DNA from: Peptococcaceae bacterium
GTDB lineage: Bacteria; Bacillota; Dehalobacteriia; UBA4068; UBA4997
Direction of reading: 5' to 3'
DNA: 64,000 nucleotides
Assembly: GCA_022797295.1 (NCBI GenBank)
Contig: JAAWKH010000008.1
Coordinates: 1,380-65,379, forward strand
The position numbers were made by a program, and so were the translations under genes. Below are positions 29,391 to 46,315 of the stretch, one piece after another. The notes beneath the pieces are model-generated. The model worked only from the letters and a program-made list of their open reading frames with translations. It searched no databases and was not told where the DNA came from. Position 1 is the first letter of the stretch, and each line of letters opens with the position of its first letter.

Positions 29391-30137
29391 ATGTTGGCAT
29401 TGATTGCCGGAACCGGCTTTTACGATTGGGAAGCTTTGCAAAATCAGCAGGAAAAACACGTGCAAACGCCTTACGGCGAGGCGGTGCTGTTTGTGGGCGA
29501 GGTGGCGACGCCGGACGGCTCCAAGCCGTTGGTTTTTTTGCCGCGCCATGCTCGTAGCCACAGTATTCCGCCGCATTTAATCAATTATCGGGCCAACATT
29601 TGGGCTTTGCATAGCTTGGGTGTGCAAAAGATTGTGGCCGTCAATGCGGTTGGCTCGCTGCTGCGGGAGGTGCCGCCGGGCAGCATTGTGCTGGTTGATG
29701 ATTTTTTGGATTTCACCTATGGCCGGGAGCACACCTTTTTTGAGGGCGGCGAAGCCGGCGTGCGCCACACGGATATGACGGATTGCTACGCCAAAGACTG
29801 GCAGCGGCAGATTAAGGCGGCGGCGGAGCGGGCCGGCGTGCCGATTGTGGAGGATGGCGTTTATGTTTGTGTGCAGGGGCCGCGCTTTGAATCGCGGGCG
29901 GAAATTCGCGCTTTTGCCAGATTGGGCGGCACCATATCCGGTATGACCGGAGTGCCGGAGGTGACGTTGGCCAATGAATTGGGTCTGCAATATGGCTCTT
30001 TGGCGATGGTGACCAACTTTGCCTGCGGTCTGGCGGAAAAGGTGACGCACGAGGAAGTGACGGAGCTGATGGGCGCCAATGCGGAACGTTTGGCTAAAAT
30101 TCTGCTTCAACTGGTTTACGCCTATCAGGAGTGCTAA
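29391..30137 (+). CDS. mtnP: MTAP-family purine nucleoside phosphorylase (likely methylthioinosine/6-oxopurine type)
   Basis: TPYG, RH, INYRANIWAL, GPRFES, GMT; VTNFA in place of the TDYD typical of MTA-specific enzymes. Confidence 0.85.
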   Translation: MLALIAGTGFYDWEALQNQQEKHVQTPYGEAVLFVGEVATPDGSKPLVFLPRHARSHSIPPHLINYRANIWALHSLGVQKIVAVNAVGSLLREVPPGSIVLVDDFLDFTYGREHTFFEGGEAGVRHTDMTDCYAKDWQRQIKAAAERAGVPIVEDGVYVCVQGPRFESRAEIRAFARLGGTISGMTGVPEVTLANELGLQYGSLAMVTNFACGLAEKVTHEEVTELMGANAERLAKILLQLVYAYQEC

Positions 30138-30189
30138 AACCTGACCACTCTGCATATACTTAAACATCTTAAATGAAGTGGGTGAGCAT

Positions 30190-30708
30190 ATGGCAGAGAA
30201 TATCGTTTTGGTGGGCATGATGGGTGTGGGTAAAACCGCCGTTGGCCGTCTGCTGGCCGAGGAGTTGGCCTTTGATTTTGTGGATTTGGACGCGGAGCTG
30301 GAGCAGGTGACAGGCCTGAAGCTACCGGAAATATATCGAAAATACGGGCAAATTCGTTTTTATTCAGAGGATAAGCTGCTGCTGGGCAAGCAGCTGGGCA
30401 AAAGCAGCCAGGTGTTTGCTGCGGACGGCGCGCTGCCGCCTCAGGCGGAGCACCTGCGGCTTTGGCGGCAGATGGGCTGTGTGGTTTGGTTGCAGGCGGA
30501 GGCGGAAACGGTTTTTCGGCGGATGCGCCGCAAAAAGAATCGTCTGTTTTTGCCTAAGCAGGCCTCGGTGGAAACTGTGCAACAAATGATGGCGGAGCGA
30601 GAACCGCTTTACGCTGAGACGGCTGATTTTGCTGTTAATGTGGATAAGTGGGCGCTGGAGCAGGTGGCGGCTAAGATTTTGGCCTTTTACCGCCGGCGCT
30701 CCTGTTGA
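30190..30708 (+). CDS. Shikimate kinase-like protein (divergent)
   Basis: NIVLVGMMGVGKT, FVDLD, REPLY; shikimate-binding motifs altered. Confidence 0.8.
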   Translation: MAENIVLVGMMGVGKTAVGRLLAEELAFDFVDLDAELEQVTGLKLPEIYRKYGQIRFYSEDKLLLGKQLGKSSQVFAADGALPPQAEHLRLWRQMGCVVWLQAEAETVFRRMRRKKNRLFLPKQASVETVQQMMAEREPLYAETADFAVNVDKWALEQVAAKILAFYRRRSC

Positions 30709-30871
30709 GAGATTGTGCGGCGATTAAGTTCCGCAGGCTGCGGGCGGCTTGCAGACTTAAAGCGGCCAGCGCTGCGGCGGCAATGGCCAGGGCGGTTGTG
30801 CAAAGCAGCAAAGCGCCCAGCATTGCTGCGGCCAACCAGCAGGCCAGAAAAAAGTATAATATTACCAACAA
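30671..30871 (-). CDS. Small hydrophobic membrane protein (66 aa)
   Basis: TTG start 9 nt after GGAGG on the minus strand; ~40 uncharged residues then a basic tail. Confidence 0.5.
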   Translation of the reverse strand: MLVILYFFLACWLAAAMLGALLLCTTALAIAAAALAALSLQAARSLRNLIAAQSLNRSAGGKRPKS

Positions 30872-30984
30872 AGTAAAAAACCTCCAAATAGTGCCTGGAA
30901 AGGGACTTCTGCTGCATTTTATGCAATATTTGGCTACCTTGCTTATATTTTAATAAAACTTTATACTTTCTTTTGCCCAAAAGC

Positions 30985-31013
30985 TTGACAAGTCGCCTTA
31001 TAAAATATAGAAT
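30985..31013 (+). promoter_or_regulatory. Sigma-A promoter upstream of the rny leader
   Basis: TTGACA (30985-30990), 17 bp, TAGAAT (31008-31013). Confidence 0.75.
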
Positions 31014-31115
31014 AATATATAGTTATAAAAGTTTTACAAAAATACATTAAAATTTTTATGGCTTTTAGAATAAATTTTTTTCATTTTTGCACCGTCGGGC
31101 TTGAAATAAAAAAAC

Positions 31116-31144
31116 TTGACACAGATATTCTGATTTTATATATT
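31116..31144 (+). promoter_or_regulatory. Possible second sigma-A promoter in the rny leader
   Basis: TTGACA (31116-31121), 17 bp, TATATT (31139-31144). Confidence 0.5.
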
Positions 31145-31310
31145 GACTGAGGAAGCTGGAGTGGATTGAGGCTGCCGAGTGGCAACCGGAGGTTTTTTTG
31201 CTGAAAACAGTTGGCTAAAGGTTTATTATTAGAATATGGCAAGATTGTGGGGGCTTTGGGCCGCCATGCTGTGATGTGCGGAAAATGAAAGCTGTGAATT
31301 TATTCTGATT

Positions 31311-31345
31311 GCCCGTCGCCTTGTGCGGCAGGGCTATTATTTTTT
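31311..31345 (+). terminator. Terminator-like hairpin in the rny leader
   Basis: GCCCGTCGC-CTTGT-GCGGCAGGGC followed by TATTATTTTTT. Confidence 0.55.
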
Positions 31346-31347
31346 AC

Positions 31348-31407
31348 GTGAACACTTAGCGATTGACAAGTTTACTTTAGTGGACGCTGACAGAGCTTAG
31401 TGTGAAC
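31348..31407. repeat. ~60 bp imperfect palindromic (REP/MITE-like) element
   Basis: GTGAACACTTAGCGATTGACAAGTTTACT-TT-AGTGGACGCTGACAGAGCTTAGTGTGAAC; second copy at 20331, fragment at 6562-6571 (minus). Confidence 0.8.
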
Positions 31408-31491
31408 CATTTCAACCAGTCGCGTTTTTTATGGCTGGCGGCTGCTTGATTGAAAAAGAGAAATAAAAAATAAAAAAAAGGAGGTGAAAGA

Positions 31492-33051
31492 ATGCCGCAA
31501 TTTTCAATCTTAAATCTGATTGTTAACGCTCTTTTTTTGGTGATAGGCCTGGCTTTGGGCTATTTTGTTGGCGCTGCTTTTTACCGCAAAATTGTGGAGG
31601 CCAAGCTGGGCGCAGCCAAAGGGACGATTGATAAAATGCTGGATGATGCGGCCAAGGAGGCGGAGTCTCAGAAGAAAGAGGCTTTGCTGGAAGCCAAGGA
31701 TGAAATTTTTAAGCTGCGTAGCAAGGCTGAGGATGAGGCGAAAGCCCGCCGTAATGAGCTGAACCAGCTGGAACAGCGTCTGCTGCAAAAGGAGGACGCT
31801 TTGGACAAAAAGCTGGAGGGTATTGAGCGCAAGGAAGCTCATTTGCAAAAGAAAAATGGCGAGCTGGATGTGCTGCGGGAGAAGATTACCAATCTGGAGC
31901 AGGAGCAACTGGCGGAGTTGGAGCGTATTTCCGGGCTGACCTCAGAGCAGGCCAAGGAAAAGCTGCTGAACGATGTTAATAAAGAAGTTCAGGTGGATAT
32001 GGCTACAATGATTAGGGAGATGGAGGCCGAGGCTAAGGACGAGGCTGAAACCCGTGCCAGAGAGGTTATTACGGAGGCTATTCAGCGCGTGGCTGCCGAC
32101 CACGCTGTGGAAAGCACAGTTTCCGTGGTGGCTCTGCCAAATGAGGAAATGAAAGGCCGAATTATTGGCCGTGAGGGCCGTAACATTCGGGCTTTGGAAA
32201 ACCTAACCGGTATTGATTTGATTATTGACGATACGCCGGAGGCGGTTATTCTTTCCGGCTTTGACCCAATTCGCCGTGAAATTGCCCGCCTTGCTTTGGG
32301 CAAGCTGATTTTAGATGGGCGTATTCACCCGGCTCGCATTGAGGAAATGGTGGAGAAGGCCAAAAAAGAGGTTGAGCAGAAAATTCGCCAGGAGGGCGAA
32401 CAAGCTGTGCTGGAAACCAATGTGCGCGGCTTGCATATTGAGCTGGTGAAGCTGCTGGGGCGGCTGCATTATCGTACCAGCTACGGCCAGAATGTGTTGA
32501 AACACTCTATTGAAGTTTCACATTTGGCTGGGGTGATGGCCGCTGAACTGGGGGCTGATGTTACCCTGGCTAAACGTGCCGGTTTGTTGCATGATATTGG
32601 CAAGGCCTTGGATCATGAGATGGAGGGCCCGCACGTGGAAATTGGTGCGGATATTGCTAAAAAATATCACGAGAGCAAGCAGGTGGTGCACGGCATTTTG
32701 GCGCACCACGGCGATGTTGAGGTGGAATCAGTGGAGGCGGCGTTGGTGCAGGCTGCCGATGCGATTTCCGCAGCCCGGCCGGGCGCGCGCCGCGACACTT
32801 TGGAATCCTATATCAAGCGGATGGAGAAGTTGGAAGCCATTGCCAATGATTTTGAGGGCGTGGAAACTGCCTATGCCATTCAGGCCGGGCGCGAACTGCG
32901 GATTATCCTGAAGCCGGAGAAGGTGGCGGAGGCTCGTGCTGAAATTATGGTGCGGGAGATTGTGAAACGCATTGAGGCGGAGCTGGATTATCCAGGCCAA
33001 ATCAAGGTTGTACTTATCCGTGAAACCCGTGTGACGGATTACGCTAAATAA
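31492..33051 (+). CDS. rny: Ribonuclease Y
   Basis: N-terminal TM helix, coiled coil, KH ([14 protein letters not shown]), HD (LLHDIGKA), AIQAGRE. Confidence 0.98.
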
Positions 33052-33074
33052 GCTTTTGGCAAACTGAAAATATG

Positions 33075-33114
33075 AAAGCCGCTTCTGCTTGTGTTACATA
33101 GCAGAGCGGCTTTT
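33075..33114 (+). terminator. Intrinsic terminator after rny
   Basis: AAAGCCGCTTCTGCT / AGCAGAGCGGCTTTT stem with one bulge. Confidence 0.75.
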
Positions 33115-33137
33115 ACTATAGAGAGATGAGGTTGAAA

Positions 33138-33755
33138 ATGCTTTATTTTTTACAGGGTTTAACCGTTGGCTTGGCGTATTCCGCGCCGATTGGTATGCAA
33201 AATCTGTTTATCATTAATTCCGCTTTGAACAGCCGTCGCCGCCGGGCTTTTTTGACGGCTTTGATTGTGGCCTTTTTTGACATTGTGCTGTCGTTGGCTT
33301 GCTTTTTCGGTGTGGGTGCGGTTATGCAGCGTTTTGTTTGGCTGCAAATGCTGATTTTGCTGGCTGGCGGCCTGGTGGTGTTGGTTATCGGCCTGCGGCT
33401 GTTGCGGGCCAAGCCGGCGGAGTTGAAGCTGGCAGGTGGTGCGCCCAGCCTGCGCCAAACGGCGGCCGCTGCTTGCGCTGTTACTTGGTTTAATCCGCAG
33501 GCGTTGATTGACGGTTCTATGATGTTGGGAGCTTTTCACGCTAGCTTGCTGCCGGGGCAGGTGCTGCCTTTTATCGCCGGGGTTGAGCTGGCTAGCTGCC
33601 TATGGTTTGCCGGGCTGACCTTTTTGGTTTCCCATTTGCGCAGCAAATTTAACGCCGGTTTATTGCGGGCAGTGAATGTTATCTGTGGTTTGGTGATAAT
33701 TTTCTATGCTGGTAAGCTGCTGTGGGATTTTGGCCGCCTGCTGTCCGGGAGTTGA
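33138..33755 (+). CDS. LysE/ArgO family amino acid exporter
   Basis: APIGMQNLFII, VTWFNPQALID, about 6 TM helices. Confidence 0.9.
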   Translation: MLYFLQGLTVGLAYSAPIGMQNLFIINSALNSRRRRAFLTALIVAFFDIVLSLACFFGVGAVMQRFVWLQMLILLAGGLVVLVIGLRLLRAKPAELKLAGGAPSLRQTAAAACAVTWFNPQALIDGSMMLGAFHASLLPGQVLPFIAGVELASCLWFAGLTFLVSHLRSKFNAGLLRAVNVICGLVIIFYAGKLLWDFGRLLSGS

Positions 33756-33760
33756 GAGTA

Positions 33761-33911
33761 AAAATTGATTGACAGAAAATGCTTAGTTATGGTATAAAGT
33801 GAAAACACATTGAAGCCAAGCCCAAAGGGCGCGGGCTGAAATGATGTTGAACTAATGCCACAGTGCAATTTGTAAAATTGATTGACAGAAAATGCTTGTC
33901 TGTGGTATAAT
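33761..33911 (+). promoter_or_regulatory. Tandemly duplicated sigma-A promoter upstream of carA
   Basis: AAAATTGATTGACAGAAAATGCTT exact at 33761 and 33874; each gives TTGACA-N18-TATAA(A/T) with extended -10 TG. Confidence 0.85.
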
Positions 33912-33964
33912 TAATCAATTTGGAGAAGTTTTTTAAGTCGAATTGATGACAGGAGTGAGTTTTT

Positions 33965-35065
33965 GTGGAGCTGTATCTTATTTTGGAAAACGGCCGTGTT
34001 TTTAAGGGACAATCCTTTGGCTGGCAAGGCGAGGTTTGCGGCGAGTTGGTTTTCACCACGGCAATGGTGGGGTATCTGGAAACTTTGACCGACCCCAGTT
34101 TTTACGGACAAATGGTTATTCAAACCTTTCCGTTGATCGGCAACTATGGAGTTATTCCGGCTGATTTTGAAAGTGCGAAGCCACACCTGAGCGCTTATAT
34201 TGTGCGTGAGTGGTGTCAGGAACCTTCTAATTTCCGCGGCGAGAGCAATCTTAACAGCTTTTTAGAGGAAAATCATATTGTGGGACTGTGCGGTATAGAT
34301 ACCCGCGCTTTAACCAGAATTATTCGTGAATATGGTGTGATGAATGCCAAAATCACCAGCAATCCAGCCGTGACGCCGGAGGTTCTGGCGGAAATCAAGG
34401 CGTATAGCTTGAAAAATCCTGTAAGCGCTGTGAGCAGACGTGATAAAGCGTCGCAGGGCAGCGGCCGGCGTGTTGTGCTTTGGGATTTTGGCGCGAAGAA
34501 TAGTATCACTCAGAATTTGTTAAAGCATGGCTGTGAGGTTATCAATATGCCGGCAGATAGCACGGCGGAACAAATTCTGGCTCAGCAGCCGCAGGGCGTT
34601 ATGCTTTCCAACGGCCCTGGGGACCCGGCCGATAATATGTCGATTGTGGCGGAGCTGCAAAAGCTTTTGGCTGCTAAAATACCAACTTTTGGTATTTGTA
34701 TGGGGCATCAGCTGTTGGCCTTGGCTGTTGGCGCTAAAACAGGCAAGCTGCATTACGGCCACCGTGGCGCTAACCAACCGATTAAGGATTTGCAGACCGG
34801 TCAGGTTTTCGTTTCCTGCCAAAATCACGGCTATGAGGTTTTGATTGACAGCCTGCCGGATTGTGCGCAACTGCGTTATATTAATGCGAACGACGGCTCC
34901 TGTGAGGGTATTGATTATCTGGACAAGCCTGCATTTTCGGTGCAGTTCCACCCGGAGGCGGCGGCCGGCCCGCTAGATACAGGCTTTTTGTTTGATAGAT
35001 TTGTAGAAATGATTGACGCCAATTTGGCTTGCAATAAAGATGCTGATAAAGCGGCGCAGAATTAG
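33965..35065 (+). CDS. carA: Carbamoyl-phosphate synthase small subunit
   Basis: LTDPSFYGQ, GIDTRALT, SNGPGDP, GICMGHQ, QFHPE. Confidence 0.97.
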   Translation: MELYLILENGRVFKGQSFGWQGEVCGELVFTTAMVGYLETLTDPSFYGQMVIQTFPLIGNYGVIPADFESAKPHLSAYIVREWCQEPSNFRGESNLNSFLEENHIVGLCGIDTRALTRIIREYGVMNAKITSNPAVTPEVLAEIKAYSLKNPVSAVSRRDKASQGSGRRVVLWDFGAKNSITQNLLKHGCEVINMPADSTAEQILAQQPQGVMLSNGPGDPADNMSIVAELQKLLAAKIPTFGICMGHQLLALAVGAKTGKLHYGHRGANQPIKDLQTGQVFVSCQNHGYEVLIDSLPDCAQLRYINANDGSCEGIDYLDKPAFSVQFHPEAAAGPLDTGFLFDRFVEMIDANLACNKDADKAAQN

Positions 35066-35080
35066 GGGAGGTAAAAATAA

Positions 35081-38000
35081 ATGCCATTAAATCCGGGAAT
35101 AAAAAAGGTTTTAGTGATTGGCTCCGGCCCGATTGTGATTGGGCAGGCGGCCGAATTTGATTACGCCGGCACGCAGGCCTGCCGGGCGCTTAAAGAGGAC
35201 GGCCTGGAGGTGGTGTTGGTAAACTCCAACCCGGCTACAATTATGACGGACAGCGCCATGGCGGACAAAATTTATATTGAACCGTTGACTTTGCCTGTGC
35301 TAAGACGGATTATTAAAAAGGAGAAGCCGGATAGTATTCTTTCCACCTTGGGCGGGCAGACCGGCCTCACTCTTTCTATGCAGCTGGCTAAGGAGGGCTT
35401 TTTGGCGGCCAACAATGTGCGGTTGCTGGGCGCGCGGCCGGAAACTATTGAGCGGGCGGAGGACCGCCAGCTTTTTAAGGAAACTATGCTGAAAATTGGC
35501 CAGCCGTGTATCCCCTCGGATATTGTAACCACGGTGGAGGACGCTGTGGTGCTGGCGGAAAAGCTGCAATATCCCGTTATCGTGCGGCCGGCCTTTACGC
35601 TGGGCGGCAGCGGCGGCGGTATCGTCAACAATGAGGCGGAGCTGCGCGAGATTGCCGACAATGGCCTGCGCCTATCGCCCATCAACCAGATTTTGCTGGA
35701 GAAATCAGTGGCCGGCTGGAAAGAAATCGAATTTGAGGTTATGCGCGATAGCAAGGGCAACAATATCACCATTTGCTCAATGGAGAATTTTGACCCGGTT
35801 GGCGTACACACCGGCGATAGTATTGTAATCGCTCCGGCTGTTACTCTTTCCGATAAGGAATATCAAATGCTGCGCACAGCCGCGCTGGATATTATCAATG
35901 AGCTGCAAGTGGAGGGCGGTTGCAACTGTCAGTTTGCCTTAAACCCCAACAGTTTTGAGTATGCCGTGATTGAGGTAAATCCGCGTGTTTCCCGCTCCTC
36001 GGCCCTGGCCTCCAAGGCCACGGGCTATCCGATTGCTAAGGTGGCCACCAAAATTGCCATTGGCTACACTTTGGATGAGATTAAAAACGCGGTGACGGGC
36101 AAAACGGCCGCGGCCTTTGAGCCGGCCATTGATTATGTGGTGGTGAAGTTCCCCAAGTGGCCATTTGATAAGTTTGTTTACGCCAAGCGCGATTTGGGCA
36201 CTCAGATGAAAGCCACCGGCGAGGTGATGGCTATTGGCCTGAACTTTGAGCAGGCCTTGATGAAAGCGGTGCGTGGGGCGGAAATTGGCTTGAGCGATTT
36301 GAATGCTCACCGCCAACTGGAGATGAGCGACGAGGAAATTCGTCAGGCTTTGCACCAATGCACGGATGAGCGGCTTTTCGTCATTTATCAAGCGATTAAG
36401 CGCGGCGTTGATTTGAAAGAGATTTACGATATTACTAAAATTGACCTGTGGTTTTTGCATAAGCTGGCTAAAATTGCTGCTATGGAGGCCAGCCTGCGCG
36501 GCGGTTACGACCAGGAGAAATATCTGGCGGCCAAGCGGATGGGCTTCCCCGACAAGGTGATTGCTCAGCTTTCCGGCCAACCGGTGACTGAGCCGGCGCG
36601 GGCTGTTTACAAGATGGTGGACACCTGCGCGGCGGAATTTGCGGCGGAAACTCCCTATTTTTACTCTACCTACGATGAGGAAAACGAGGCGGCGGAATTT
36701 TTGGCGGAGCGCGCCAATCCCAAGCCGACGATTATGGTTTTGGGCTCCGGCCCCATTCGTATCGGCCAGGGCATTGAGTTTGACTATGCCTCTGTGCATT
36801 GCGTGTGGGCTTTGCAGCAAAAGGGTTTTGAGGTGGCGATCGTCAACAACAACCCGGAAACTGTTTCCACCGATTTTGACACGGCCGACCGCTTGTATTT
36901 TGAGCCGCTCACCGAGGAGGATGTGAGCAATATTATTGCTACGGAAAAGCCTTATGGTGTTGTGGTGGCTTTTGGCGGCCAAACGGCTATTAAGCTGACC
37001 AACTTTTTGGACAAGCAGGGCGTGCGCATTTTGGGTACCTCGGCGGATAGTATTGACCGTGCGGAAGATCGCGGCCGCTTTGATGAATTGCTGACCAAGT
37101 TGAATATTATGCGTCCGCAGGGTGAAACGGTTAAAACCACCGAGGAGGCTTTGGCGGCAGCCGAGCATATCGGATACCCGGTTTTGATGCGTCCCTCTTA
37201 CGTTTTGGGCGGCCAAAATATGATTATCGCCTTTAATGAGGCGGATATTAAGGAATATATGGCAATTATCCTGGAACAGAATGTGGATAATCTGGTGCTT
37301 ATTGATAAATATTTGCAGGGTGTGGAGCTGGAAATTGACGCTATTTGCGACGGCGATGACATCCTAATTCCTGGTATTATGGAGCATGTGGAGCGTACCG
37401 GCGTACACTCCGGCGACTCGATTGCCGTTTATCCCTCTTTCAATATCAACGACGATATGGTGGAGGTGATTATTGAAACCACTCGTAAGCTGGCGGTGGA
37501 GCTGGAAACTCACGGCCTGGTAAATATTCAATACCTGATTAAGGACGACCAGCTTTACGTGATTGAGGTTAATCCGCGCTCATCTCGCACTATTCCGTAT
37601 TTGAGCAAGGTGACGGGCGTGCCGATGGTGGATTTGGCCACGCGGGCTTTGCTGGGTGAAAAGCTGGCCGATATGGGATATGGCACGGGGCTTTATCCCA
37701 CGCCGGTTTACTGTGCGGTTAAGGTGCCGATTTTCTCCTTTGAAAAGCTGCTGAACGTAGACAATCAGCTGGGGCCGGAGATGAAGAGCACCGGCGAGGT
37801 TTTGGGCATTGGCTCCAACTTTGAGGAGGCTATTTACAAAGGCCTGGTGGCGGCCGGTTACAATCTGAACCAAAAGGGCGGCCTGTTTGTGACGGTGAAC
37901 GACCGCGACAAGGCGGAGATTGTGCATGTGGTGAAAAAATTTGCCGATATGGGCTTTGAGATTTACGCCACGGCCGGCACTCAAAAGGTTTTGAAGCAAG

Positions 38001-39118
38001 CGGGCATTGAATCTAATTTTGTGGAGAAAATCCACGAGGGCGAGGACAATGCCGTGAAGCTGATGGAGGAGGGCAAGCTGAATTATCTCATCTCCACTTC
38101 AGCCAAGGGGCGCAACCCCCAAAAGGATAGTGTGATTACCCGGCGCAAGGCGGTGGAGCGGGGAATTCCCTGTCTGACATCTATCGACACGGCTAACGTG
38201 CTGGCAGACAGCTTGTGCAGTCTTTATACGCAGGATAGCATTGAGCTGGTGGATATTAACAATCTGCGGCGAGAGCTGCAAACCTTGCCGTTTACTAAAA
38301 TGCAGAGCTGCGGCAACGATTATATTTACTTCAACTGCCTGGAGCAGCAGCTGGATAACCCTGCCGGTTTGGCAGTGCGCCTGTGCCGGCGAAACCGGGG
38401 CGTTGGCGGCGACGGCGTGGTGATGATTTGCCCTTCTGATAAGGCTGATGTTTACGTTAAGGTTTACAATGTGGACGGTAGCAACGGCGGCATTGGCGGC
38501 AACGCCATCCGTTGCGTGGGCAAGTATCTTTACGATAATCAGATTGTTCACAAGGATGAAATGAGTATTGAAACCGATTACGGCATTAAGCAGCTGAAGC
38601 TGATTAAACGCAACGGTAAGGTTTGGGGCGCTTCGGTTCTGATGGGCAAGCCGCAACTGGTGCCGTCGGCTTTGCCAATGCTGGCGGAGGGTCAGGATTT
38701 CATCAACCGGCCGATTGAGGTGTTGGGCCAGACCTACAACGCTACTTGCCTTTCGGTGGGTAATCCGCATATGGTTATTTTCACAGACGATTTGGCGGGC
38801 GTGCAGCTGGACAAAATCGGCTCCGCCTTTGAGCATCACGAATGGTTCCCGGAGCGGGTGAATGTGGAGTTTGTGAAGGTGTTCAGCGAGGATATTTTGT
38901 ATATGCAGGTTTGGGAGCGCGGCAACGGCTACACCAACGCCTGCGGCACCGGCTCATGCGCGGCGGTGGTGGCGGCGGTGTTAAACGGCCTGTGCGCTAA
39001 GGGCCGCGACATCACAGTGAAGCAGCCTGGCGGTGATTTAATCATCAGCTTTGACGGCGAAAATATTCGTATGACCGGCAGCGCGGAGAAGCTTTTTGAC
39101 GGCGTGGTTGAAATCTAA
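35081..39118 (+). CDS. carB: Carbamoyl-phosphate synthase large subunit with C-terminal DapF-like domain
   Basis: GSGPIVIGQAAEFDY, two ATP-grasp halves, MGS domain; from ~38285 FTKMQSCGNDY, GDG, GNPH, NVEF, WERG..ACGTG. Confidence 0.96.
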   Translation: MPLNPGIKKVLVIGSGPIVIGQAAEFDYAGTQACRALKEDGLEVVLVNSNPATIMTDSAMADKIYIEPLTLPVLRRIIKKEKPDSILSTLGGQTGLTLSMQLAKEGFLAANNVRLLGARPETIERAEDRQLFKETMLKIGQPCIPSDIVTTVEDAVVLAEKLQYPVIVRPAFTLGGSGGGIVNNEAELREIADNGLRLSPINQILLEKSVAGWKEIEFEVMRDSKGNNITICSMENFDPVGVHTGDSIVIAPAVTLSDKEYQMLRTAALDIINELQVEGGCNCQFALNPNSFEYAVIEVNPRVSRSSALASKATGYPIAKVATKIAIGYTLDEIKNAVTGKTAAAFEPAIDYVVVKFPKWPFDKFVYAKRDLGTQMKATGEVMAIGLNFEQALMKAVRGAEIGLSDLNAHRQLEMSDEEIRQALHQCTDERLFVIYQAIKRGVDLKEIYDITKIDLWFLHKLAKIAAMEASLRGGYDQEKYLAAKRMGFPDKVIAQLSGQPVTEPARAVYKMVDTCAAEFAAETPYFYSTYDEENEAAEFLAERANPKPTIMVLGSGPIRIGQGIEFDYASVHCVWALQQKGFEVAIVNNNPETVSTDFDTADRLYFEPLTEEDVSNIIATEKPYGVVVAFGGQTAIKLTNFLDKQGVRILGTSADSIDRAEDRGRFDELLTKLNIMRPQGETVKTTEEALAAAEHIGYPVLMRPSYVLGGQNMIIAFNEADIKEYMAIILEQNVDNLVLIDKYLQGVELEIDAICDGDDILIPGIMEHVERTGVHSGDSIAVYPSFNINDDMVEVIIETTRKLAVELETHGLVNIQYLIKDDQLYVIEVNPRSSRTIPYLSKVTGVPMVDLATRALLGEKLADMGYGTGLYPTPVYCAVKVPIFSFEKLLNVDNQLGPEMKSTGEVLGIGSNFEEAIYKGLVAAGYNLNQKGGLFVTVNDRDKAEIVHVVKKFADMGFEIYATAGTQKVLKQAGIESNFVEKIHEGEDNAVKLMEEGKLNYLISTSAKGRNPQKDSVITRRKAVERGIPCLTSIDTANVLADSLCSLYTQDSIELVDINNLRRELQTLPFTKMQSCGNDYIYFNCLEQQLDNPAGLAVRLCRRNRGVGGDGVVMICPSDKADVYVKVYNVDGSNGGIGGNAIRCVGKYLYDNQIVHKDEMSIETDYGIKQLKLIKRNGKVWGASVLMGKPQLVPSALPMLAEGQDFINRPIEVLGQTYNATCLSVGNPHMVIFTDDLAGVQLDKIGSAFEHHEWFPERVNVEFVKVFSEDILYMQVWERGNGYTNACGTGSCAAVVAAVLNGLCAKGRDITVKQPGGDLIISFDGENIRMTGSAEKLFDGVVEI

Positions 39119-39225
39119 CTTGAAATATGAAGCGACATTTTGCCAGAATTTTGTTAGCAGAACCTTAACAGAAAAAACAGGCTTAATGTGTAATATTATA
39201 TAGATGAAAATTTTTATAAGGGGAA

Positions 39226-39720
39226 ATGAATATTATGGGCAAGGCAGCGGAAATTGATTTGCAGCCTTTGGAACCGGTGCTGGCGGAATATGCGGCCAAA
39301 CCGGGTTCATTGATTACGATTTTGCAGCACACACAAGATATTTACGGTTATCTGCCCCAGCCGGCGCTGGCTAAAATCAGCGAGGCTGTGGGCGTGGCCC
39401 CGGCCAAGGTGTTGGGGGTGGCCTCCTTTTACACCCAATTCCGGTTGCAGCCGGTGGGGCGTTATCTGATTATGCTGTGCCAGGGCACGGCCTGCCACGT
39501 GAACGGGGCGGAGAGTATTTCCGCTATTATCAGTGAGGAGCTGGGCATTGCCGACGGCCAAACCACGGCGGACGGTTTGTTTACATTGAAGCACGTGGCT
39601 TGTTTGGGTTGCTGTTCATTGGCGCCGGCGATGATGATTAACGGCGAGGTTTACGGCAATTTGACGGCTGATTCAGTGCGCGGTGTGCTGAAAGAGCTGC
39701 GGGCAAAGGAGGCGGAATAA
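39226..39720 (+). CDS. NuoE/HydC-like [2Fe-2S] subunit (StnA-like)
   Basis: YGYLP, VASFYTQF, CQGTAC, CLGCC..AP. Confidence 0.93.
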   Translation: MNIMGKAAEIDLQPLEPVLAEYAAKPGSLITILQHTQDIYGYLPQPALAKISEAVGVAPAKVLGVASFYTQFRLQPVGRYLIMLCQGTACHVNGAESISAIISEELGIADGQTTADGLFTLKHVACLGCCSLAPAMMINGEVYGNLTADSVRGVLKELRAKEAE

Positions 39721-41480
39721 TGGCAATCAGAGTGAAAATTGGCTTGGGCAGCTGTGGTATGGCCGCCGGAGCCAGGCAGACGCAGCAAGCTTTGGATGAG
39801 GCTTTGGCGGCGGGCGGCTCAAAAATTCGCAGCGAGCGCACCGGTTGTATTGGTTTGTGCTTTGCGGAACCGCTGGTGGAGGTTTGCGATGAAGCGGCCG
39901 GCCAAAGCTGGCTTTATGGCCGGGTGGACGCGGCGGCCGCAGCCCGGATTGCCGAGGGGCATATTTTGGGCGGCCAGGTGCAGGAAGATTTGTTGCTTTC
40001 TGGGGATGAGCTGCATTTTCTGCACAGCCAAACCCGCATTGCCCTGCGCAACTGCGGTGTAATCGACCCGGAAAATATCGAGGACTACATAGAGCGCGGC
40101 GGCTATCAAGCGTTGCGCCAGGCGGTTTGCGAGATGACCCCGGAGAGCGTTATCGATACGGTGAAAATCTCCGGCCTGCGCGGCCGGGGCGGCGCGGGCT
40201 TTCCCACCTGGTTTAAGTGGGATGCCTGCCGTAAGGCTGAGGGTGAACTGAAATATGTGATTTGCAACGCGGACGAGGGCGACCCCGGCGCGTTTATGGA
40301 CCGCAGCGTGCTGGAGAGCGACCCGCACAGCGTGTTGGAGGGTATGGCCATCGCCGCCCGCGCCATCGGCAGCAGCCAGGGCGTGATTTACGTGCGTGCG
40401 GAATATCCCCTGAGTATTCACCGGTTGGAGTTGGCTATGCAGGCGGCGCGAGAAAAAGGTTTTTTGGGTAAAAATATCTTTGGCAGCGGTTGGGATTTTG
40501 ATATTTACATCAAGGCCGGCGCGGGGGCGTTCGTTTGCGGCGAGGAAACGGCTTTGCTGGCCTCTTTGGAGGGCGAGCGGGGTATGCCGCGTTTGAAGCC
40601 GCCTTTCCCGGCCCAAAAGGGCTTTTGGCAGCGGCCTAGCAATATTAACAATGTGGAAACTTTCGCCAACGTGGCCTGGATTATTCGCAATGGCGGCGAG
40701 GCCTATGCCGCTATGGGCACGGAAACCAGCAAGGGCACCAAGGTGTTTGCTTTGGCTGGCAAAATTAAGCGTGGCGGCCTGGTTGAGGTGCCGATGGGCA
40801 TTACCCTGCGCGAGGTTATTTTTGACATCGGCGGCGGTATCAAGGACGGTGGCAATTTTAAGGCGGTGCAGATGGGCGGCCCCTCCGGCGGCTGTATTCC
40901 GGCCTCTCTGCTGGATACGCCGGTGGATTACGAGAGCATTAGCCAGACCGGTGCGATTATGGGCAGCGGCGGCATGATTATTATGGACGAAGCCACTTGT
41001 ATGGTGGATATGGCTCGCTTTTTTCTGGATTTTACGCAAAAGGAAAGCTGCGGCAAATGTGTGCATTGTCGTATTGGCACCAAACGTATGTTGGAGATTT
41101 TGGAGCGGATCTGCCGCGGCGAGGGCCAGCCCGGCGATGTGGAGCTTTTGCAGGATTTGGGCAAGCAAATTCAGGCCGGTTCTCTTTGCGGCCTGGGCGC
41201 TTCTGCGCCAAACCCGGCGCTGAGCACCATCCGCTACTTTGCGGAGGAATATCGGGCCCATATTGAGGAACACAAATGCCCCAGCCACAGCTGCCGGCCC
41301 CTGCTGGAATATCACATCAAGCCGGAAAAATGCAAGGGTTGTTCGCTTTGCGCGCGCAAATGCCCGGCTGGCGCGATCAGCGGCGAGCTGCGGGAAGTTT
41401 TTGTAATTGATATGACCAAGTGTATTAAATGTGGCAACTGTGCCGCCGTCTGCCGCTTTGGGGCGGTTGAGGCGCTGTGA
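39720..41480 (+). CDS. NuoF/HydB-like FMN/NADH-binding Fe-S subunit (StnB-like)
   Basis: GRGGAGFP, NADEGDPGAFMD, CGEETAL, GGPSGG, SCGKCVHC, C-terminal 2x[4Fe-4S]. Confidence 0.95.
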   Translation: MAIRVKIGLGSCGMAAGARQTQQALDEALAAGGSKIRSERTGCIGLCFAEPLVEVCDEAAGQSWLYGRVDAAAAARIAEGHILGGQVQEDLLLSGDELHFLHSQTRIALRNCGVIDPENIEDYIERGGYQALRQAVCEMTPESVIDTVKISGLRGRGGAGFPTWFKWDACRKAEGELKYVICNADEGDPGAFMDRSVLESDPHSVLEGMAIAARAIGSSQGVIYVRAEYPLSIHRLELAMQAAREKGFLGKNIFGSGWDFDIYIKAGAGAFVCGEETALLASLEGERGMPRLKPPFPAQKGFWQRPSNINNVETFANVAWIIRNGGEAYAAMGTETSKGTKVFALAGKIKRGGLVEVPMGITLREVIFDIGGGIKDGGNFKAVQMGGPSGGCIPASLLDTPVDYESISQTGAIMGSGGMIIMDEATCMVDMARFFLDFTQKESCGKCVHCRIGTKRMLEILERICRGEGQPGDVELLQDLGKQIQAGSLCGLGASAPNPALSTIRYFAEEYRAHIEEHKCPSHSCRPLLEYHIKPEKCKGCSLCARKCPAGAISGELREVFVIDMTKCIKCGNCAAVCRFGAVEAL

Positions 41481-41498
41481 TTAAGGAGGCTTTAAATA

Positions 41499-44400
41499 AT
41501 GTCCGAAATTAAATTGACTATTGACGGCAGAGAACTAACGGCCTCTGCTGGCGAAACGATTTTGGCTGTGGCCCGTCGGGCCGGGATTGAAATTCCTACC
41601 CTTTGCCATGACGACAGCCTGAAGCCTTACGGCGCTTGCGGCATGTGCGTGGTGGCGATGGAGGGCAGCCCGCGGCTGTTCCGCGCCTGCGCCACGGAGG
41701 CGGCCGAGGGACAGGTGATTTACACCAACACGGAGGCGGTGCGCTCTGCCCGCAAAACGGCTTTGGAGCTGTTGCTTTCCAACCACAAGGGCGATTGCAA
41801 GGCTCCTTGTCAGCTGGCTTGCCCGGCGGGCAGTGATTGCCAGGGCTACGTTGGGTTGATTGCCAACAATCGCTTTGCCGAGGCCTTGCAGTTGATTAAG
41901 GAGAGTTATCCGATTCCGGCTTCTCTGGGGCGGGTTTGTCCGCACCCTTGCGAAGAGGCTTGCCGTCGGGCTAAGGTGGAGCAGCCTATCAATTTGGCGC
42001 GCTTAAAGCAGTTTGCCGCCGATGTGGATTTGAATGCGGCGGAGCCTTATCTGCCGCAAAAGGAGGCGGCCACCGGCAAACGGGTGGCTGTGGTGGGCGG
42101 CGGCCCGGCTGGTTTGACGTTGGCTTATTTTATGGCTCTCAAGGGTCATCAGCCCGTAATTTTTGAAATGATGCCGCAGGCTGGCGGTATGCTGCGCTAT
42201 GGCATACCGGAATATCGCCTGCCGAAAAATATTTTGGATCTGGAAATTGCCCTGATTGAAAAGCTTGGTGTGGAAATTCGCACTAAATGTATGCTGGGGC
42301 GCGATGTGCAGTTTGCCGATTTGCAGCGGGATTTTGACGCGGTTTATCTGGCTAACGGTGCGTGGCGCAGCGCCGGTTTGCGTTGCGAGGGCGAGGACCT
42401 GCCCGGCGTGGTTGGCGGCATTGACTTTTTGGGCAATGTGGCTATGGGCAATTTGACTAAGCTGGGCGGCCGGGTGGCCGTTGTTGGCGGCGGCAACACT
42501 GCAATGGACGCTTGCCGCACGGCGGTGCGCTTGGGCGCCAGCAAGGTTTATATTTTGTACCGCCGGACGGAGGCGGAAATGCCGGCTGAGGATGTGGAAA
42601 TCCGCGAGGCTATGGAGGAGGGCGTGCAGTTTAAGTTTTTGGTGGCCCCCACCAGAGTTATTGGCGAGAACGGCCGGGCGGCGGCCATTGAGCTGCAACA
42701 GATGGAGCTGGGCGAGCCGGACGAGAGCGGCCGGCGTAAGCCGGTGCCGGTGGAGGGTGGCATTGAAACTCTGCCGGTTGATTTGGTGATTGCGGCCATT
42801 GGCCAAAAGGTGGTGCCGCTGGCTTTGGGCGAGGGAAATGAAAACGCCCTGCAATACACGCCTTGGCAGACGATTGCCGCTGATGAGCACACTTTTGCCA
42901 CTTCCATTCCCGGCGTGTTTGCCGGCGGCGACGCGATTAACGACGGCCCCGGCATTGCGGTGGAGGCGGTGGCCCACGCCAAACAGGCGGCTAAGGTTAT
43001 CGACCATTATCTGCGGACTGGTGAAGTTTCTGCCGCTATTAATGAAGCGAAATATCTGCACAAAAACGGCGAGCCGGAGGCGGAATTTTTTGCCCAGAAG
43101 CAGCGCGTGCAGCGTGTTTCCATTAGTTATTTACACCCCGATTATCGCCGGAGCAATTTTGCCGAGGTGGCCAAGGGATACGACCAGATGGAAGCGATGT
43201 ACGAGGCCAGCCGTTGCCTGGAGTGTGGCTGCGGCGATGTGTTCGAGTGCCGTTTGCTGCATTATGCGCAGGAATATCAGGCAGAGCCGCAAAAATATGC
43301 GGGCGAGATTAATCTGACTCCTAAGGACGCCAGCCATCCCTTTATTGTGCGGGATATGAGCAAGTGTATTTTGTGCGGTAACTGCGTGCGGGCTTGCGAG
43401 GAAGTGGCCGGTGTTGGCGCGCTGGGCCTGGACGGCCGCGGTTTTCCCACTGTGGTGGTGGCGGATTTTGGTCTGCCGCTGGGCGATAGCAGCTGCAAGG
43501 GCTGCGGCCAGTGCGTGGCGGTTTGCCCAACCGGCGCGTTGCAGGAGCGGCAGCCTTGGGAAAAACCGGTGCCGCTGGAGTGCGAGGCTCAGCCAAGCGT
43601 TTGCAATTTCTGTGGCAACGGCTGCAATTTGCAAATTCAGCATAAGGGGGATTATGTGGCTAAAGTGGAGCCGGCCGAGGGCGGCCGTTTGTGCCAGACG
43701 GGGCGGTTTGGCTATCCGCATGCTATGACTTCCACCGGGCGGCCCACGCCGGGCATTGATTTTGGCGAGGGTATGACGGAGAGCACCCACGCGCACGCTT
43801 TGAAAGCGGCGGCAGCGGCTATTAATTCCCTGCGGGAAACCGACGGCACCGATACCATCGGCGTTGTGGTTGGCGACCAGCTGACCAGCGAGGAGTTGTT
43901 CCTGTTAAAATTTATGGCGGATGAGATTATTGGCACGCCCTATCTTTACGCGCCCAATGCGCAGTCTGGCGGTTTGGGCAATATCTGGGGTTTTGACGCT
44001 TCCACGGCCACGGTGGCTGATGTGGAGGCGGCGGATTTGCTGTTGGCTGTTGGTGATGAGCTGGCGGAAAGCTATCCTATTTTAGGCTCCAAACTGCAAA
44101 AGGGCGCCAAGGCAGGGCAAAAGCTGCTGCTGGTGGCGGATAACCCCGGCGTTTTGGGCCAGGCTGCGGCTCGGGTTTTTGCGCCGGAGGGCAAGGCTGC
44201 CCTGCTGGCGGCGGCTTCGGTGCTGATGGCTGGCAAAAAGGCTGACGGGCTGGATGGCGTTGATAAAATTGCTTATGAAAAAATAAACTATAATAATAAT
44301 GCTGATAAGGAGCTGGTGGAACAGCTTTTGGCGGCCAAAAAACCGGTGATTTTGCTGGATAGGAGCCGCCTGACCAGCGAGGCTGCGCAGTGTGTGGCGG

Positions 44401-45014
44401 CGTTGGCTCAAAATGGCGGTCTGCCGGTGTTGCAGCTGGTGGCCCGCGCTAACAGCCAGACGGTGCGGGCGCTGGGCATTGAACGTGATATGAAGCAGCT
44501 TTACGCGGATATTGCCGCGGGCAAGCTGAAAGGTCTGCTGCTGTTTGGGGTGGATATTCCGGCGGAGCAGGCGGAGAATATGGAATTTGTGCTGGAGGCG
44601 GATTCCACCTATGGCCGGGCTTATCCCTATGCCTCGGTGTTGGTGCCGCTGGCTGGTTTTGGCGCGGTTACCGGCAGCTATGTCAACTTTGAGGGCAGGC
44701 TGCAAAAGGTTGAGGCCGCAGTGCAGCCTGCCTGGAAGCAGGAAAACTGGCAGCTTTTGGCAGAGTTGATTAACAACTTGAACTCTCGCTATAAGTTTAC
44801 TGATTTGCAGCAAATTCGCGACGGTTTGGCGGCGGTTGTGCCAGAATTTGCCGCGGCTTTGCAGCAGAACGCTGTTTTTGTGAGCGCAGACGGCCAGCTA
44901 CCCCAAACCCCAGACGGCGTGGTTTTGCTGCACGGACGGGAAACTGCGGCCTTTGCCAAGGAATATGAGCAGGCCAGCACTTCAATGAAAAATTGGTCTA
45001 AAATGAAGCATTAG
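41499..45014 (+). CDS. Multidomain [2Fe-2S]/GltD-like FAD-NADPH/[4Fe-4S]/NuoG-like subunit (StnC-like)
   Basis: IPTLC..CGMC, GRVCPHPCE, GGGPAG, GGGNTAMD, YRR, CILCGNC, CKGCGQC, CNFCGNGC; no H-cluster motifs. Confidence 0.88.
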   Translation: MSEIKLTIDGRELTASAGETILAVARRAGIEIPTLCHDDSLKPYGACGMCVVAMEGSPRLFRACATEAAEGQVIYTNTEAVRSARKTALELLLSNHKGDCKAPCQLACPAGSDCQGYVGLIANNRFAEALQLIKESYPIPASLGRVCPHPCEEACRRAKVEQPINLARLKQFAADVDLNAAEPYLPQKEAATGKRVAVVGGGPAGLTLAYFMALKGHQPVIFEMMPQAGGMLRYGIPEYRLPKNILDLEIALIEKLGVEIRTKCMLGRDVQFADLQRDFDAVYLANGAWRSAGLRCEGEDLPGVVGGIDFLGNVAMGNLTKLGGRVAVVGGGNTAMDACRTAVRLGASKVYILYRRTEAEMPAEDVEIREAMEEGVQFKFLVAPTRVIGENGRAAAIELQQMELGEPDESGRRKPVPVEGGIETLPVDLVIAAIGQKVVPLALGEGNENALQYTPWQTIAADEHTFATSIPGVFAGGDAINDGPGIAVEAVAHAKQAAKVIDHYLRTGEVSAAINEAKYLHKNGEPEAEFFAQKQRVQRVSISYLHPDYRRSNFAEVAKGYDQMEAMYEASRCLECGCGDVFECRLLHYAQEYQAEPQKYAGEINLTPKDASHPFIVRDMSKCILCGNCVRACEEVAGVGALGLDGRGFPTVVVADFGLPLGDSSCKGCGQCVAVCPTGALQERQPWEKPVPLECEAQPSVCNFCGNGCNLQIQHKGDYVAKVEPAEGGRLCQTGRFGYPHAMTSTGRPTPGIDFGEGMTESTHAHALKAAAAAINSLRETDGTDTIGVVVGDQLTSEELFLLKFMADEIIGTPYLYAPNAQSGGLGNIWGFDASTATVADVEAADLLLAVGDELAESYPILGSKLQKGAKAGQKLLLVADNPGVLGQAAARVFAPEGKAALLAAASVLMAGKKADGLDGVDKIAYEKINYNNNADKELVEQLLAAKKPVILLDRSRLTSEAAQCVAALAQNGGLPVLQLVARANSQTVRALGIERDMKQLYADIAAGKLKGLLLFGVDIPAEQAENMEFVLEADSTYGRAYPYASVLVPLAGFGAVTGSYVNFEGRLQKVEAAVQPAWKQENWQLLAELINNLNSRYKFTDLQQIRDGLAAVVPEFAAALQQNAVFVSADGQLPQTPDGVVLLHGRETAAFAKEYEQASTSMKNWSKMKH

Positions 45015-45967: not shown

Positions 45968-46315
45968 ATGCCGTATATTAGAATGGCTACGTCACAAACT
46001 TTGACGGCGGCCCAAAAGGATGAATTTAAGGCTGGCCTGGCGGAGATTATCGGGCTGATACCGGGCAAAACGGAGGCGGCTTTGATGCTGGAGGTTGACG
46101 ACGGGCTGACGATGTACTTCAAGGGCGAAAAGCGCGGCCTGGCCTATCTGGACGCAAAATTTTCCGGCGATACGGAATTTGAGCATAAAAAGAATTTTAC
46201 CGAAGCCGCCTGCCGGCTGGCCGGGCAGGTCTGCGGCCTGCCCCAGGACGCGGTCTATCTGACTTACAGCGTGTTCAACGAGTGGGGCACCGGCGGCACT
46301 TTGAAAGCGCGTTAA
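45968..46315 (+). CDS. Tautomerase/MIF superfamily protein
   Basis: Pro directly after Met, IPGKTE, ..EWG tail, 115 aa; AGGAGG RBS. Confidence 0.8.
   Translation: MPYIRMATSQTLTAAQKDEFKAGLAEIIGLIPGKTEAALMLEVDDGLTMYFKGEKRGLAYLDAKFSGDTEFEHKKNFTEAACRLAGQVCGLPQDAVYLTYSVFNEWGTGGTLKAR

Follow-up and report, generated by a model that had tools for sequence, protein, structure and literature searches.

The window analysed here, 64,000 nucleotides of a Peptococcaceae bacterium (GenBank assembly GCA_022797295.1, contig JAAWKH010000008.1, positions 1,380 to 65,379 of the forward strand), holds a gene, carB::dapF, in which the large subunit of carbamoyl-phosphate synthetase (CPS), CarB, is followed in frame by a domain with the fold of diaminopimelate (DAP) epimerase, DapF. 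The fused domain has glycine in place of the first catalytic cysteine (Cys1), retains the second (Cys2), and keeps the residues that bind DAP. Judged from sequence and predicted structure, it could be a non-catalytic DAP-binding module that regulates the CPS to which it is joined, a reading for which we consider the case evenly balanced. Its steps differ in strength: loss of catalysis is held with high confidence, ligand binding with moderate confidence, and DAP as the identity of that ligand likewise with moderate confidence, while an effect of the domain on CPS is the weakest step.

Authenticity and architecture of carB::dapF

The reading frame of carB::dapF runs uninterrupted through 1345 codons with no internal stop, and carA lies directly upstream. 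NCBIfam model NF003671 matches residues 1-1047 at 1494.9 bits (cut-off 599) and TIGR00652 matches residues 1071-1343 at 253.8 bits (cut-off 114.65); scanned alone, the DapF domain scores 258.8 bits against the same TIGR00652 cut-off. The CarB part has all that is expected of its family, namely two ATP-grasp halves, oligomerisation and MGS domains, a hidden Markov model (HMM) score above cut-off and a carA partner. A preliminary description of this DNA, made from the letters alone, had proposed CarB joined to a DapF-like domain with a Cys-to-Gly change near position 38495; the open reading frame (ORF), the NCBIfam scans and the alignment to solved DapF structures confirm it.

The fusion is real and not an assembly artefact, because the same fusion, with Gly at the Cys1 site, is present in 10/10 other searched genomes of the genus and because contigs from 4 runs of 4 studies, one of which is possibly the source of the window DNA, read through the point where CarB joins DapF and through the Gly codon, showing no indel and the codon unchanged. 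RNA-library contigs also cover the gene, which we do not take as a sign of expression. Among the matches listed, the closest named relative is Candidatus Avidehalobacter gallistercoris, with 78% identity in the domain.

A probably inactivated catalytic site with an intact DAP pocket

The first catalytic motif of the fused domain reads DGSNGGIGGN, in which Gly1139 aligns with the catalytic Cys of the B. anthracis and Anabaena DapFs. The catalytic pair is Gly1139/Cys1288 rather than the two Cys (or Ser/Ser) of DapF (EC 5.1.1.7), and therefore we do not file the domain as a DAP epimerase. The two-base mechanism points to a loss of catalysis, since the single mutants C83A and C221A of C. glutamicum DapF are almost wholly inactive (PMC5296763). 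Ser/Ser DapF enzymes exist (PMC13728532); by its residues, the Gly/Cys pair is not of that type. A stand-alone DapF with Ser at both catalytic positions, resembling these Ser/Ser epimerases, was seen elsewhere in our sample (L155, G355:C168:21552-22970). The motifs GNPH, NVEF and ERG..ACGTG, earlier described as kept, are all present, the last including Cys1288 at 38942.

All ten DAP-binding positions of Anabaena DapF (Asn13, Asn66, Gly76, Asn77, Asn164, Asn197, Glu215, Arg216, Gly225 and Thr226) are matched in the fused domain, where Asn1079, Asn1130, Gly1140, Asn1141, Asn1228, Asn1261, Glu1279, Arg1280, Gly1289 and Thr1290 are present. Of these, Asn66, Asn164, Asn197, Glu215 and Arg216 bind DAP at its distal end, through the amine and the carboxylate there (PMC12039745). 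Lysine and ornithine had also been suggested as ligands and are less likely, as the residues for the distal carboxylate of DAP are retained. An AlphaFold model of the domain with 50 upstream residues reached a pLDDT of 86 and has DapFs as its best structural matches; in Foldseek it superposes on the closed Anabaena DapF 9mro at 1.6 Å root-mean-square deviation and matches B. anthracis DapF 2otn at E 8e-36.

Recurrent loss of Cys1 under purifying selection

A total of 2841 clusters of 739-2354 aa match the fused DapF domain, and CarB Pfam domains are present in all of the best 120. Our family sample was ranked by similarity to the window domain (the best 120 of the 2841 clusters and the best 80 of 588 loci). 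Among 216 distinct fused domains, the states of the two catalytic positions are Cys/Cys (110), Gly/Cys (49), Ala/Cys (19), Ser/Ala (14), Gly/Ser (10) and Ser/Cys (9), with single cases of Ala/Ser, Ser/Ser and Phe/Cys and two partial sequences. Cys1 is lost in 105 of the 216; its replacement is Gly, Ala or Ser in 104/105 and never Arg or Tyr, to which one transition in a Cys codon would lead. Cys2 is also lost in 26 of the 105 Cys1-less domains (it is kept in 78 of the 104 readable ones), and there are no cases of its loss with Cys1 kept. Stand-alone DapFs are Cys/Cys in 89/90, the degenerate match L164 being excluded from these counts. The comparison of fused with stand-alone domains called for in the preliminary description shows a recurrent loss of Cys1 but not a universal one: about half of the sampled fusions, which that description had overlooked, keep both Cys and are probably working epimerases.

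The Cys1 state changes 17 times on the domain tree (catalytic loops masked), 12 times on the CarB tree and 11 times on a reduced set, and the Cys2 state changes 6 times, in several lineages. Change counts themselves give no direction; that the direction was loss we infer from outgroups. A two-Cys group (L037-L048) is nested among Cys-less lineages and may have regained Cys1.

The five distal DAP-binding residues are all kept in 100/105 Cys1-less domains, 23/26 doubly Cys-less domains, 110/111 Cys1-bearing fused domains and 80/90 stand-alone DapFs. In the genus, the median ratio of nonsynonymous to synonymous substitution (dN/dS; Nei-Gojobori, 9 genomes, pairs with dS outside 0.05-2 excluded) is 0.106 for the Cys-less domain (35/36 pairs), 0.212 for the stand-alone DapF (31/36) and 0.041 for the final 480 codons of CarB (29/36), where pairs are non-independent and many dS values lie near saturation. 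All strain differences within the domain (8/8) are synonymous, and the catalytic-motif state is identical in all 11 genus genomes. Because the Cys-less domain is more constrained than the two-Cys dapF of the same genus, we do not regard it as decay. Strain-specific erosion of the Cys, for which the preliminary description had allowed, is excluded by the genus-wide Gly, the low dN/dS and the retained pocket. In having lost a catalytic residue while retaining its pocket under purifying selection, the domain shows a feature expected of an allosteric ligand-binding pseudo-enzyme domain.

Asn occupies domain position 218 in 81/105 Cys1-less domains as compared to 1/111 Cys1-bearing fused domains. 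With phylogenetic correction this association is not significant, some 3 of 7 supported pairs going the same way and almost none the opposite way. Corrected tests of Cys loss against Met162, Met64 and Leu102 were likewise not significant (4-7 supported pairs).

Backup genes and genomic context

In the genome of the window, a separate two-Cys DapF, a gene that the preliminary description had proposed looking for, is present at G000:C43:5245-6156 and lies far from the fused clade in the domain tree. Together with the Gly at Cys1 it supports the earlier claim that the fused domain is not a working epimerase. No match to Ddh was found in this genome, which is 92.8% complete. A single carB was found, the fused one; dapL and an argC-J-B-D-F-G cluster are located elsewhere (argC, argD and argG being assigned by location and by the look of the sequence, without a family scan), and a second gene of the aspartate/ornithine carbamoyltransferase (ATCase/OTCase) family is likely pyrB. 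On this gene content, meso-DAP supply does not depend on the fused domain, and the fused CPS is likely the one used for arginine as well as for pyrimidine synthesis.

A second DapF match besides the fusion occurs in 10/10 other genus genomes. Across the class, the fusion is found in 28/52 genomes, with a second DapF match in 28/28. In a 301-genome sample of the phylum there are at least 7 fusions outside the class among the matches listed, beyond which lie 100 weaker matches. The best 80 of 588 named loci are mostly from Clostridia (Ruminococcus, Oscillospiraceae, Syntrophomonadaceae), and in most of the 80 genomes no CarB other than the fused one was found. One record labelled Treponema and one labelled Alloprevotella (L134 and L144) also carry the fusion, suggesting transfer out of Firmicutes or mis-binning.

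Context was compared across 79 named genomes, L109 having been dropped because Cys2 is cut off by a contig end; many contigs are short, making gene absences soft. A second two-Cys DapF is present in 8/45 genomes with a two-Cys fusion versus 22/34 with a Cys1-less one (Fisher p 5e-5, related genomes being non-independent). In 21/45 two-Cys and 4/34 Cys1-less genomes there was no match to a second DapF or to Ddh, and Ddh alone does not track Cys loss (14/34 Cys1-less versus 20/45 two-Cys). The two-Cys fusion is the only detected DapF in 37/45 genomes. The fetched flank contains dapL in 21/45 two-Cys but 0/34 Cys1-less fusions, and arg genes flank 0/45 two-Cys versus 9/34 Cys1-less fusions, all 9 falling in two clades. 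Corrected for phylogeny, Cys loss is not significantly associated with any backup or with dapL adjacency (4-7 pairs). No partner enzyme is conserved beside the fusion gene in the neighbourhoods compared. Two-Cys fusions sit in a glnA-ANTAR regulator-(purF)-carA-carB::dapF-pyrG-dapL-asnB cluster and are probably working bifunctional enzymes.

On the CarB tree, the 77 fused CarBs group in a single clade (SH-aLRT 100) that contains 0/28 unfused CarBs; there is therefore no domain loss seen in this sample. On the domain tree, a quick IQ-TREE tree, 70 representative fused domains fall in one 73-row clade (support 95) that includes 3 stand-alone copies. Stand-alone two-Cys DapFs inside or beside the fused clade (L055, L058, L160-L163, L165, L166) could represent fissions or donors. 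Unfused gene clusters were also seen, purF-carA-carB-dapF-dapL at L229 (G417:C8:35500-45605) and carA-carB-dapF-dapL-nadE at L230 (G426:C98:1-8218), in genomes that also bear a Cys-less fusion in an arginine operon. These separate neighbouring carB, dapF and dapL genes suggest how the fusion may have arisen; the unfused CarBs of the two genomes are not the sister group of the fused clade.

Effector sites of the fused CarB

The bacterial CPS effectors described in a review, nucleotides and ornithine, act on the MGS domain, where Ser948, Thr977, Lys993 and Thr1042 of the E. coli enzyme have roles (PMC6245113). In an alignment to 1bxr, the uridine/inosine monophosphate (UMP/IMP) site of the window CarB has Thr938 for Ser948, Thr967 for Thr977 and Lys983 for Lys993, and Thr1033 is the equivalent of the ornithine-site residue Thr1042. 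Where E. coli has Glu892, a residue that we take to be involved in ornithine binding, 77/77 fused CarBs have Val or Ala, and the window protein has Val; our full-text literature search found no paper on an E892A mutant. In one clade of fused CarBs (L127, L129, L131-L133, L139-L142, L149, L152), the Gly976, Lys993 and Ser1026 positions are changed in most. This clade with a degenerate UMP/IMP site is of the Ala/Cys type and still retains the DapF pocket; its members are possibly nucleotide-insensitive, arginine-type enzymes.

A model for the fused domain and its alternatives

In our model, adjacent carB and dapF genes would have fused once, within a nitrogen-assimilation gene cluster, to give a bifunctional enzyme. 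Where a second dapF or Ddh supplied meso-DAP, Gly, Ala or Ser would then have taken the place of Cys1 on many occasions. DAP (LL or meso) would bind between the two lobes and drive an open-to-closed movement without turnover, and the tethered domain would pass this signal to the neighbouring MGS domain, shifting the activity of the sole CPS for arginine and pyrimidine. As to the sign of control, activation is slightly favoured, with DAP reporting that nitrogen and the aspartate family are in plentiful supply. Continued binding is indicated by the intact polar pocket, the small Cys1 replacements and the strong constraint. DapF shuts around DAP through loop movements of 3.5-6.2 Å (PMC5296763), and since the domain is tethered beside an effector domain, allosteric control would be its simplest use. 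The wider claim, that a widespread class of Clostridia CPS is controlled by diaminopimelate, its domain having become a sensor instead of an enzyme on a dozen or more separate occasions along one common path (a small residue for Cys1, often Asn for Ser218, with loss of Cys2 afterwards), is possible but doubtful.

Several observations weigh against a regulatory, DAP-binding role. The UMP/IMP site and the Thr1042 equivalent appear to be kept, so that CarB does not obviously need another regulator, and we found no physiological rationale in print for control of CPS by DAP. Structure prediction, suggested earlier as a check, recovered the DapF fold but not a fixed MGS-DapF interface: the MGS and DapF domains modelled as a single chain gave a pTM of 0.70 with a low-confidence linker, leaving relative orientation and interface unfixed. 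With phylogenetic correction, Cys loss against a second dapF gave 4 supported pairs and p = 1, and 4/34 Cys1-less genomes, which are incomplete assemblies, show neither a second dapF nor Ddh. A sample ranked by similarity under-represents decayed forms, and the shares given above are not family-wide estimates. One copy (L020, G028:C29:1-2370) has Phe at Cys1 and several altered pocket residues, and is the sole clearly decaying copy seen.

The main rival is a purely structural role, in which the domain is kept for dimerisation by way of its final beta-strand or for the stability that it lends CarB, and ligand binding is incidental; it is unlikely in our estimate, though it accommodates a good deal. 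DapF dimerises through its C-terminal strand (PMC5296763), which in the fusion is free and conserved in sequence (F/Y-x-G-x-V/I-E-I); no domain loss is seen in the fused clade; and a CPS-fusion precedent exists in the dead dihydroorotase (DHO) domain of the fungal Ura2/CAD-like protein (PMC8442968). That pseudo-DHO is devoid of an active site, whereas here the polar pocket persists in 100/105 Cys1-less domains and only small residues stand in for the Cys, features for which a pure scaffold has no obvious need. Also raised in the preliminary description was a single-Cys catalyst. In it Cys1288 would be the lone base, for instance in isomerising a DAP-like or carbamoylated amino acid or in an elimination from one, possibly with carbamoyl phosphate. 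This we consider improbable: the loss of Cys2 in 26/105 Cys1-less domains, later than that of Cys1 and in several lineages (6 changes), with the pocket staying in 23/26, argues against a shared new chemistry, no conserved partner enzyme adjoins the gene, and the distal pocket is unchanged, whereas the substrate-switched HisR lacks any basic residue in its pocket (PMC11602996). The same idea would nonetheless explain why Cys2 is kept in 78/104 readable Cys1-less domains and never lost first, why several lineages show Ser-to-Asn at position 218 after losing Cys1 and why 9/34 Cys-less fusions sit with arginine genes, and DapF-fold relatives in the structure and sequence matches include dehydratases, PhzF and O-ureidoserine racemase.

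Slow interconversion of LL- and meso-DAP, with water or another residue replacing Cys1, would account for the retention of all binding residues and for the 4/34 Cys1-less genomes that are without a detected backup, and Ser/Ser DapFs exist (PMC13728532). It is very improbable nonetheless, given that Gly has no side chain, that Cys-to-Ala nearly abolishes activity (PMC5296763), that the window's own genome has a two-Cys dapF and that dapL adjoins 21/45 two-Cys but 0/34 Cys1-less fusions. Hardly credible, and largely refuted for the genus, is a neutral relic, a passenger domain slowly decaying after a second dapF took over: dN/dS among the genus pairs listed is 0.03-0.14, below that of the two-Cys DapF, the motif is the same in 11/11 genus genomes, strain differences are synonymous in 8/8, and no truncation is seen in the fused clade. 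What speaks for such a relic is the visibly degenerate G028 copy, the loss of the UMP site in some Cys-less CarBs, and sampling that favours conserved copies.

Flanking features of the window

The coordinates of carB::dapF, its parts and its upstream elements are collected in Table 1. The second promoter-like copy before carA, a predicted site, has 12/12 consensus bases and an extended -10 TG, and the repeat pair recalls the tandem promoters of E. coli carAB. Rfam gave nothing at gathering score in window 30000-42000. The LysE/ArgO exporter gene argO, which the preliminary description took as a link to basic amino acids, lies upstream of carA in just 4/9 informative genus genomes (G008 excluded, as its contig ends), and a duplicated promoter-like element of carA's own separates it from argO; we reject argO as a partner. 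Downstream of carB, window 39226-45014 contains a NuoE/NuoF/NuoG-like three-gene cluster whose order is kept across the genus and whose 1171-aa gene joins a GltD-like flavin domain and a molybdopterin-oxidoreductase-like domain. Further on, window 45968-46315 encodes a 115-aa ORF beginning Met-Pro, with no Pfam match at E 1e-8; its N-terminal proline recalls tautomerase/MIF-like proteins.

Table 1. Positions of carB::dapF features and upstream elements in the window.
Feature	Position	Strand	Basis or remark
Tandem sigma-70-like promoter sites before carA (37-nt direct repeat)	33761..33797 and 33874..33910	+	89% identical, 113 nt apart
carA, glutaminase small subunit of CPS	33965..35065	+	TIGR01368, 416.8 bits (cut-off 307.35); Cys and His motifs present
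carB::dapF fusion gene	35081..39118	+	1345 aa; single ORF and family scans
CarB part, residues 1-1047	35081..38221	+	Two ATP-grasp halves, oligomerisation domain, MGS domain; NF003671, TIGR01369; aligned to E. coli CPS 1bxr
MGS-like allosteric domain, residues 946-1033	37916..38179	+	PF02142
Linker of ~25 residues, MGS to DapF, with conserved ELVDIN motif	38216..38290	+	Alignments; AlphaFold pLDDT 58-68
DapF-fold domain	38291..39118	+	TIGR00652; AlphaFold pLDDT 86; DAP pocket residues intact
Gly1139 (GGC), replacing Cys1	38495..38497	+	Alignment
Asn1282 (ERGN), Ser-to-Asn change accompanying Cys1 loss across the family	38924..38926	+	Domain position 218
Cys1288, Cys2 retained	38942..38944	+	Alignment

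Significance and comparison with known systems

The CarB-DapF fusion is real and conserved, and apparently undescribed in print. A full-text literature search, with most subscription journals outside its reach, found no description of it, and it is absent from the available passages of two pathway-reconstruction papers (PMC13759103, PMC9026213), the second of which has supplement tables that could annotate such fusions. Databases hold the fused proteins, mostly named CarB, and the probably active two-Cys fusions too are mostly labelled only CarB. The dead domain exceeds the TIGR00652 cut-off, and pipelines would thus count it as dapF in lysine and peptidoglycan reconstructions. If the regulatory reading is true, an appended DAP-binding domain would give an enzyme at a central branch point a new input, across thousands of sequence clusters of anaerobic Firmicutes, and would tie the making of arginine and pyrimidines directly to the pool of precursors for cell wall and lysine; the family would offer a natural series of an enzyme turning into an allosteric domain. 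With two-Cys, one-Cys and no-Cys forms at hand, such a pseudo-enzyme origin is directly testable with few proteins.

Both folds are known. As compared to DapF (TIGR00652, PF01678; 2otn, 9mro), the window domain is alike in fold, length, HMM score, substrate-binding residues and second Cys; it differs in having Gly for the first Cys and in sitting behind CarB, with the host's two-Cys copy on another branch of the tree. The CarB part shares domain order, the effector-site positions of Ser948 (Thr here), Thr977, Lys993 and Thr1042 and, likely, service as the single CPS for both pathways with bacterial CarB (E. coli 1bxr; NF003671, TIGR01369), and differs in a C-terminus ~300 residues longer and in Val or Ala at the Glu892 position. 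Architecture, linker and clade are shared with the two-Cys CarB-DapF fusions of Clostridia known as database entries (for example P0025 and P0080), which differ in keeping both Cys, in often lying next to dapL and in being the sole DapF in 37/45 genomes.

Two further systems are comparable in principle. A dead domain on CPS has a precedent in the fungal Ura2/CAD-like protein, where, as here, the activity comes from a separate gene (PMC8442968); the pseudo-DHO differs in fold and pathway, has no active site and plays a structural role, while the active-site pocket of the window domain is not erased but intact. E. coli DapF activates RppH, so that a DapF fold would regulate another enzyme in both cases (PMC4227774, PMC6061791, PMC13728532), with the difference that in E. 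coli a catalytically active DapF acts in trans on an RNA-decay enzyme.

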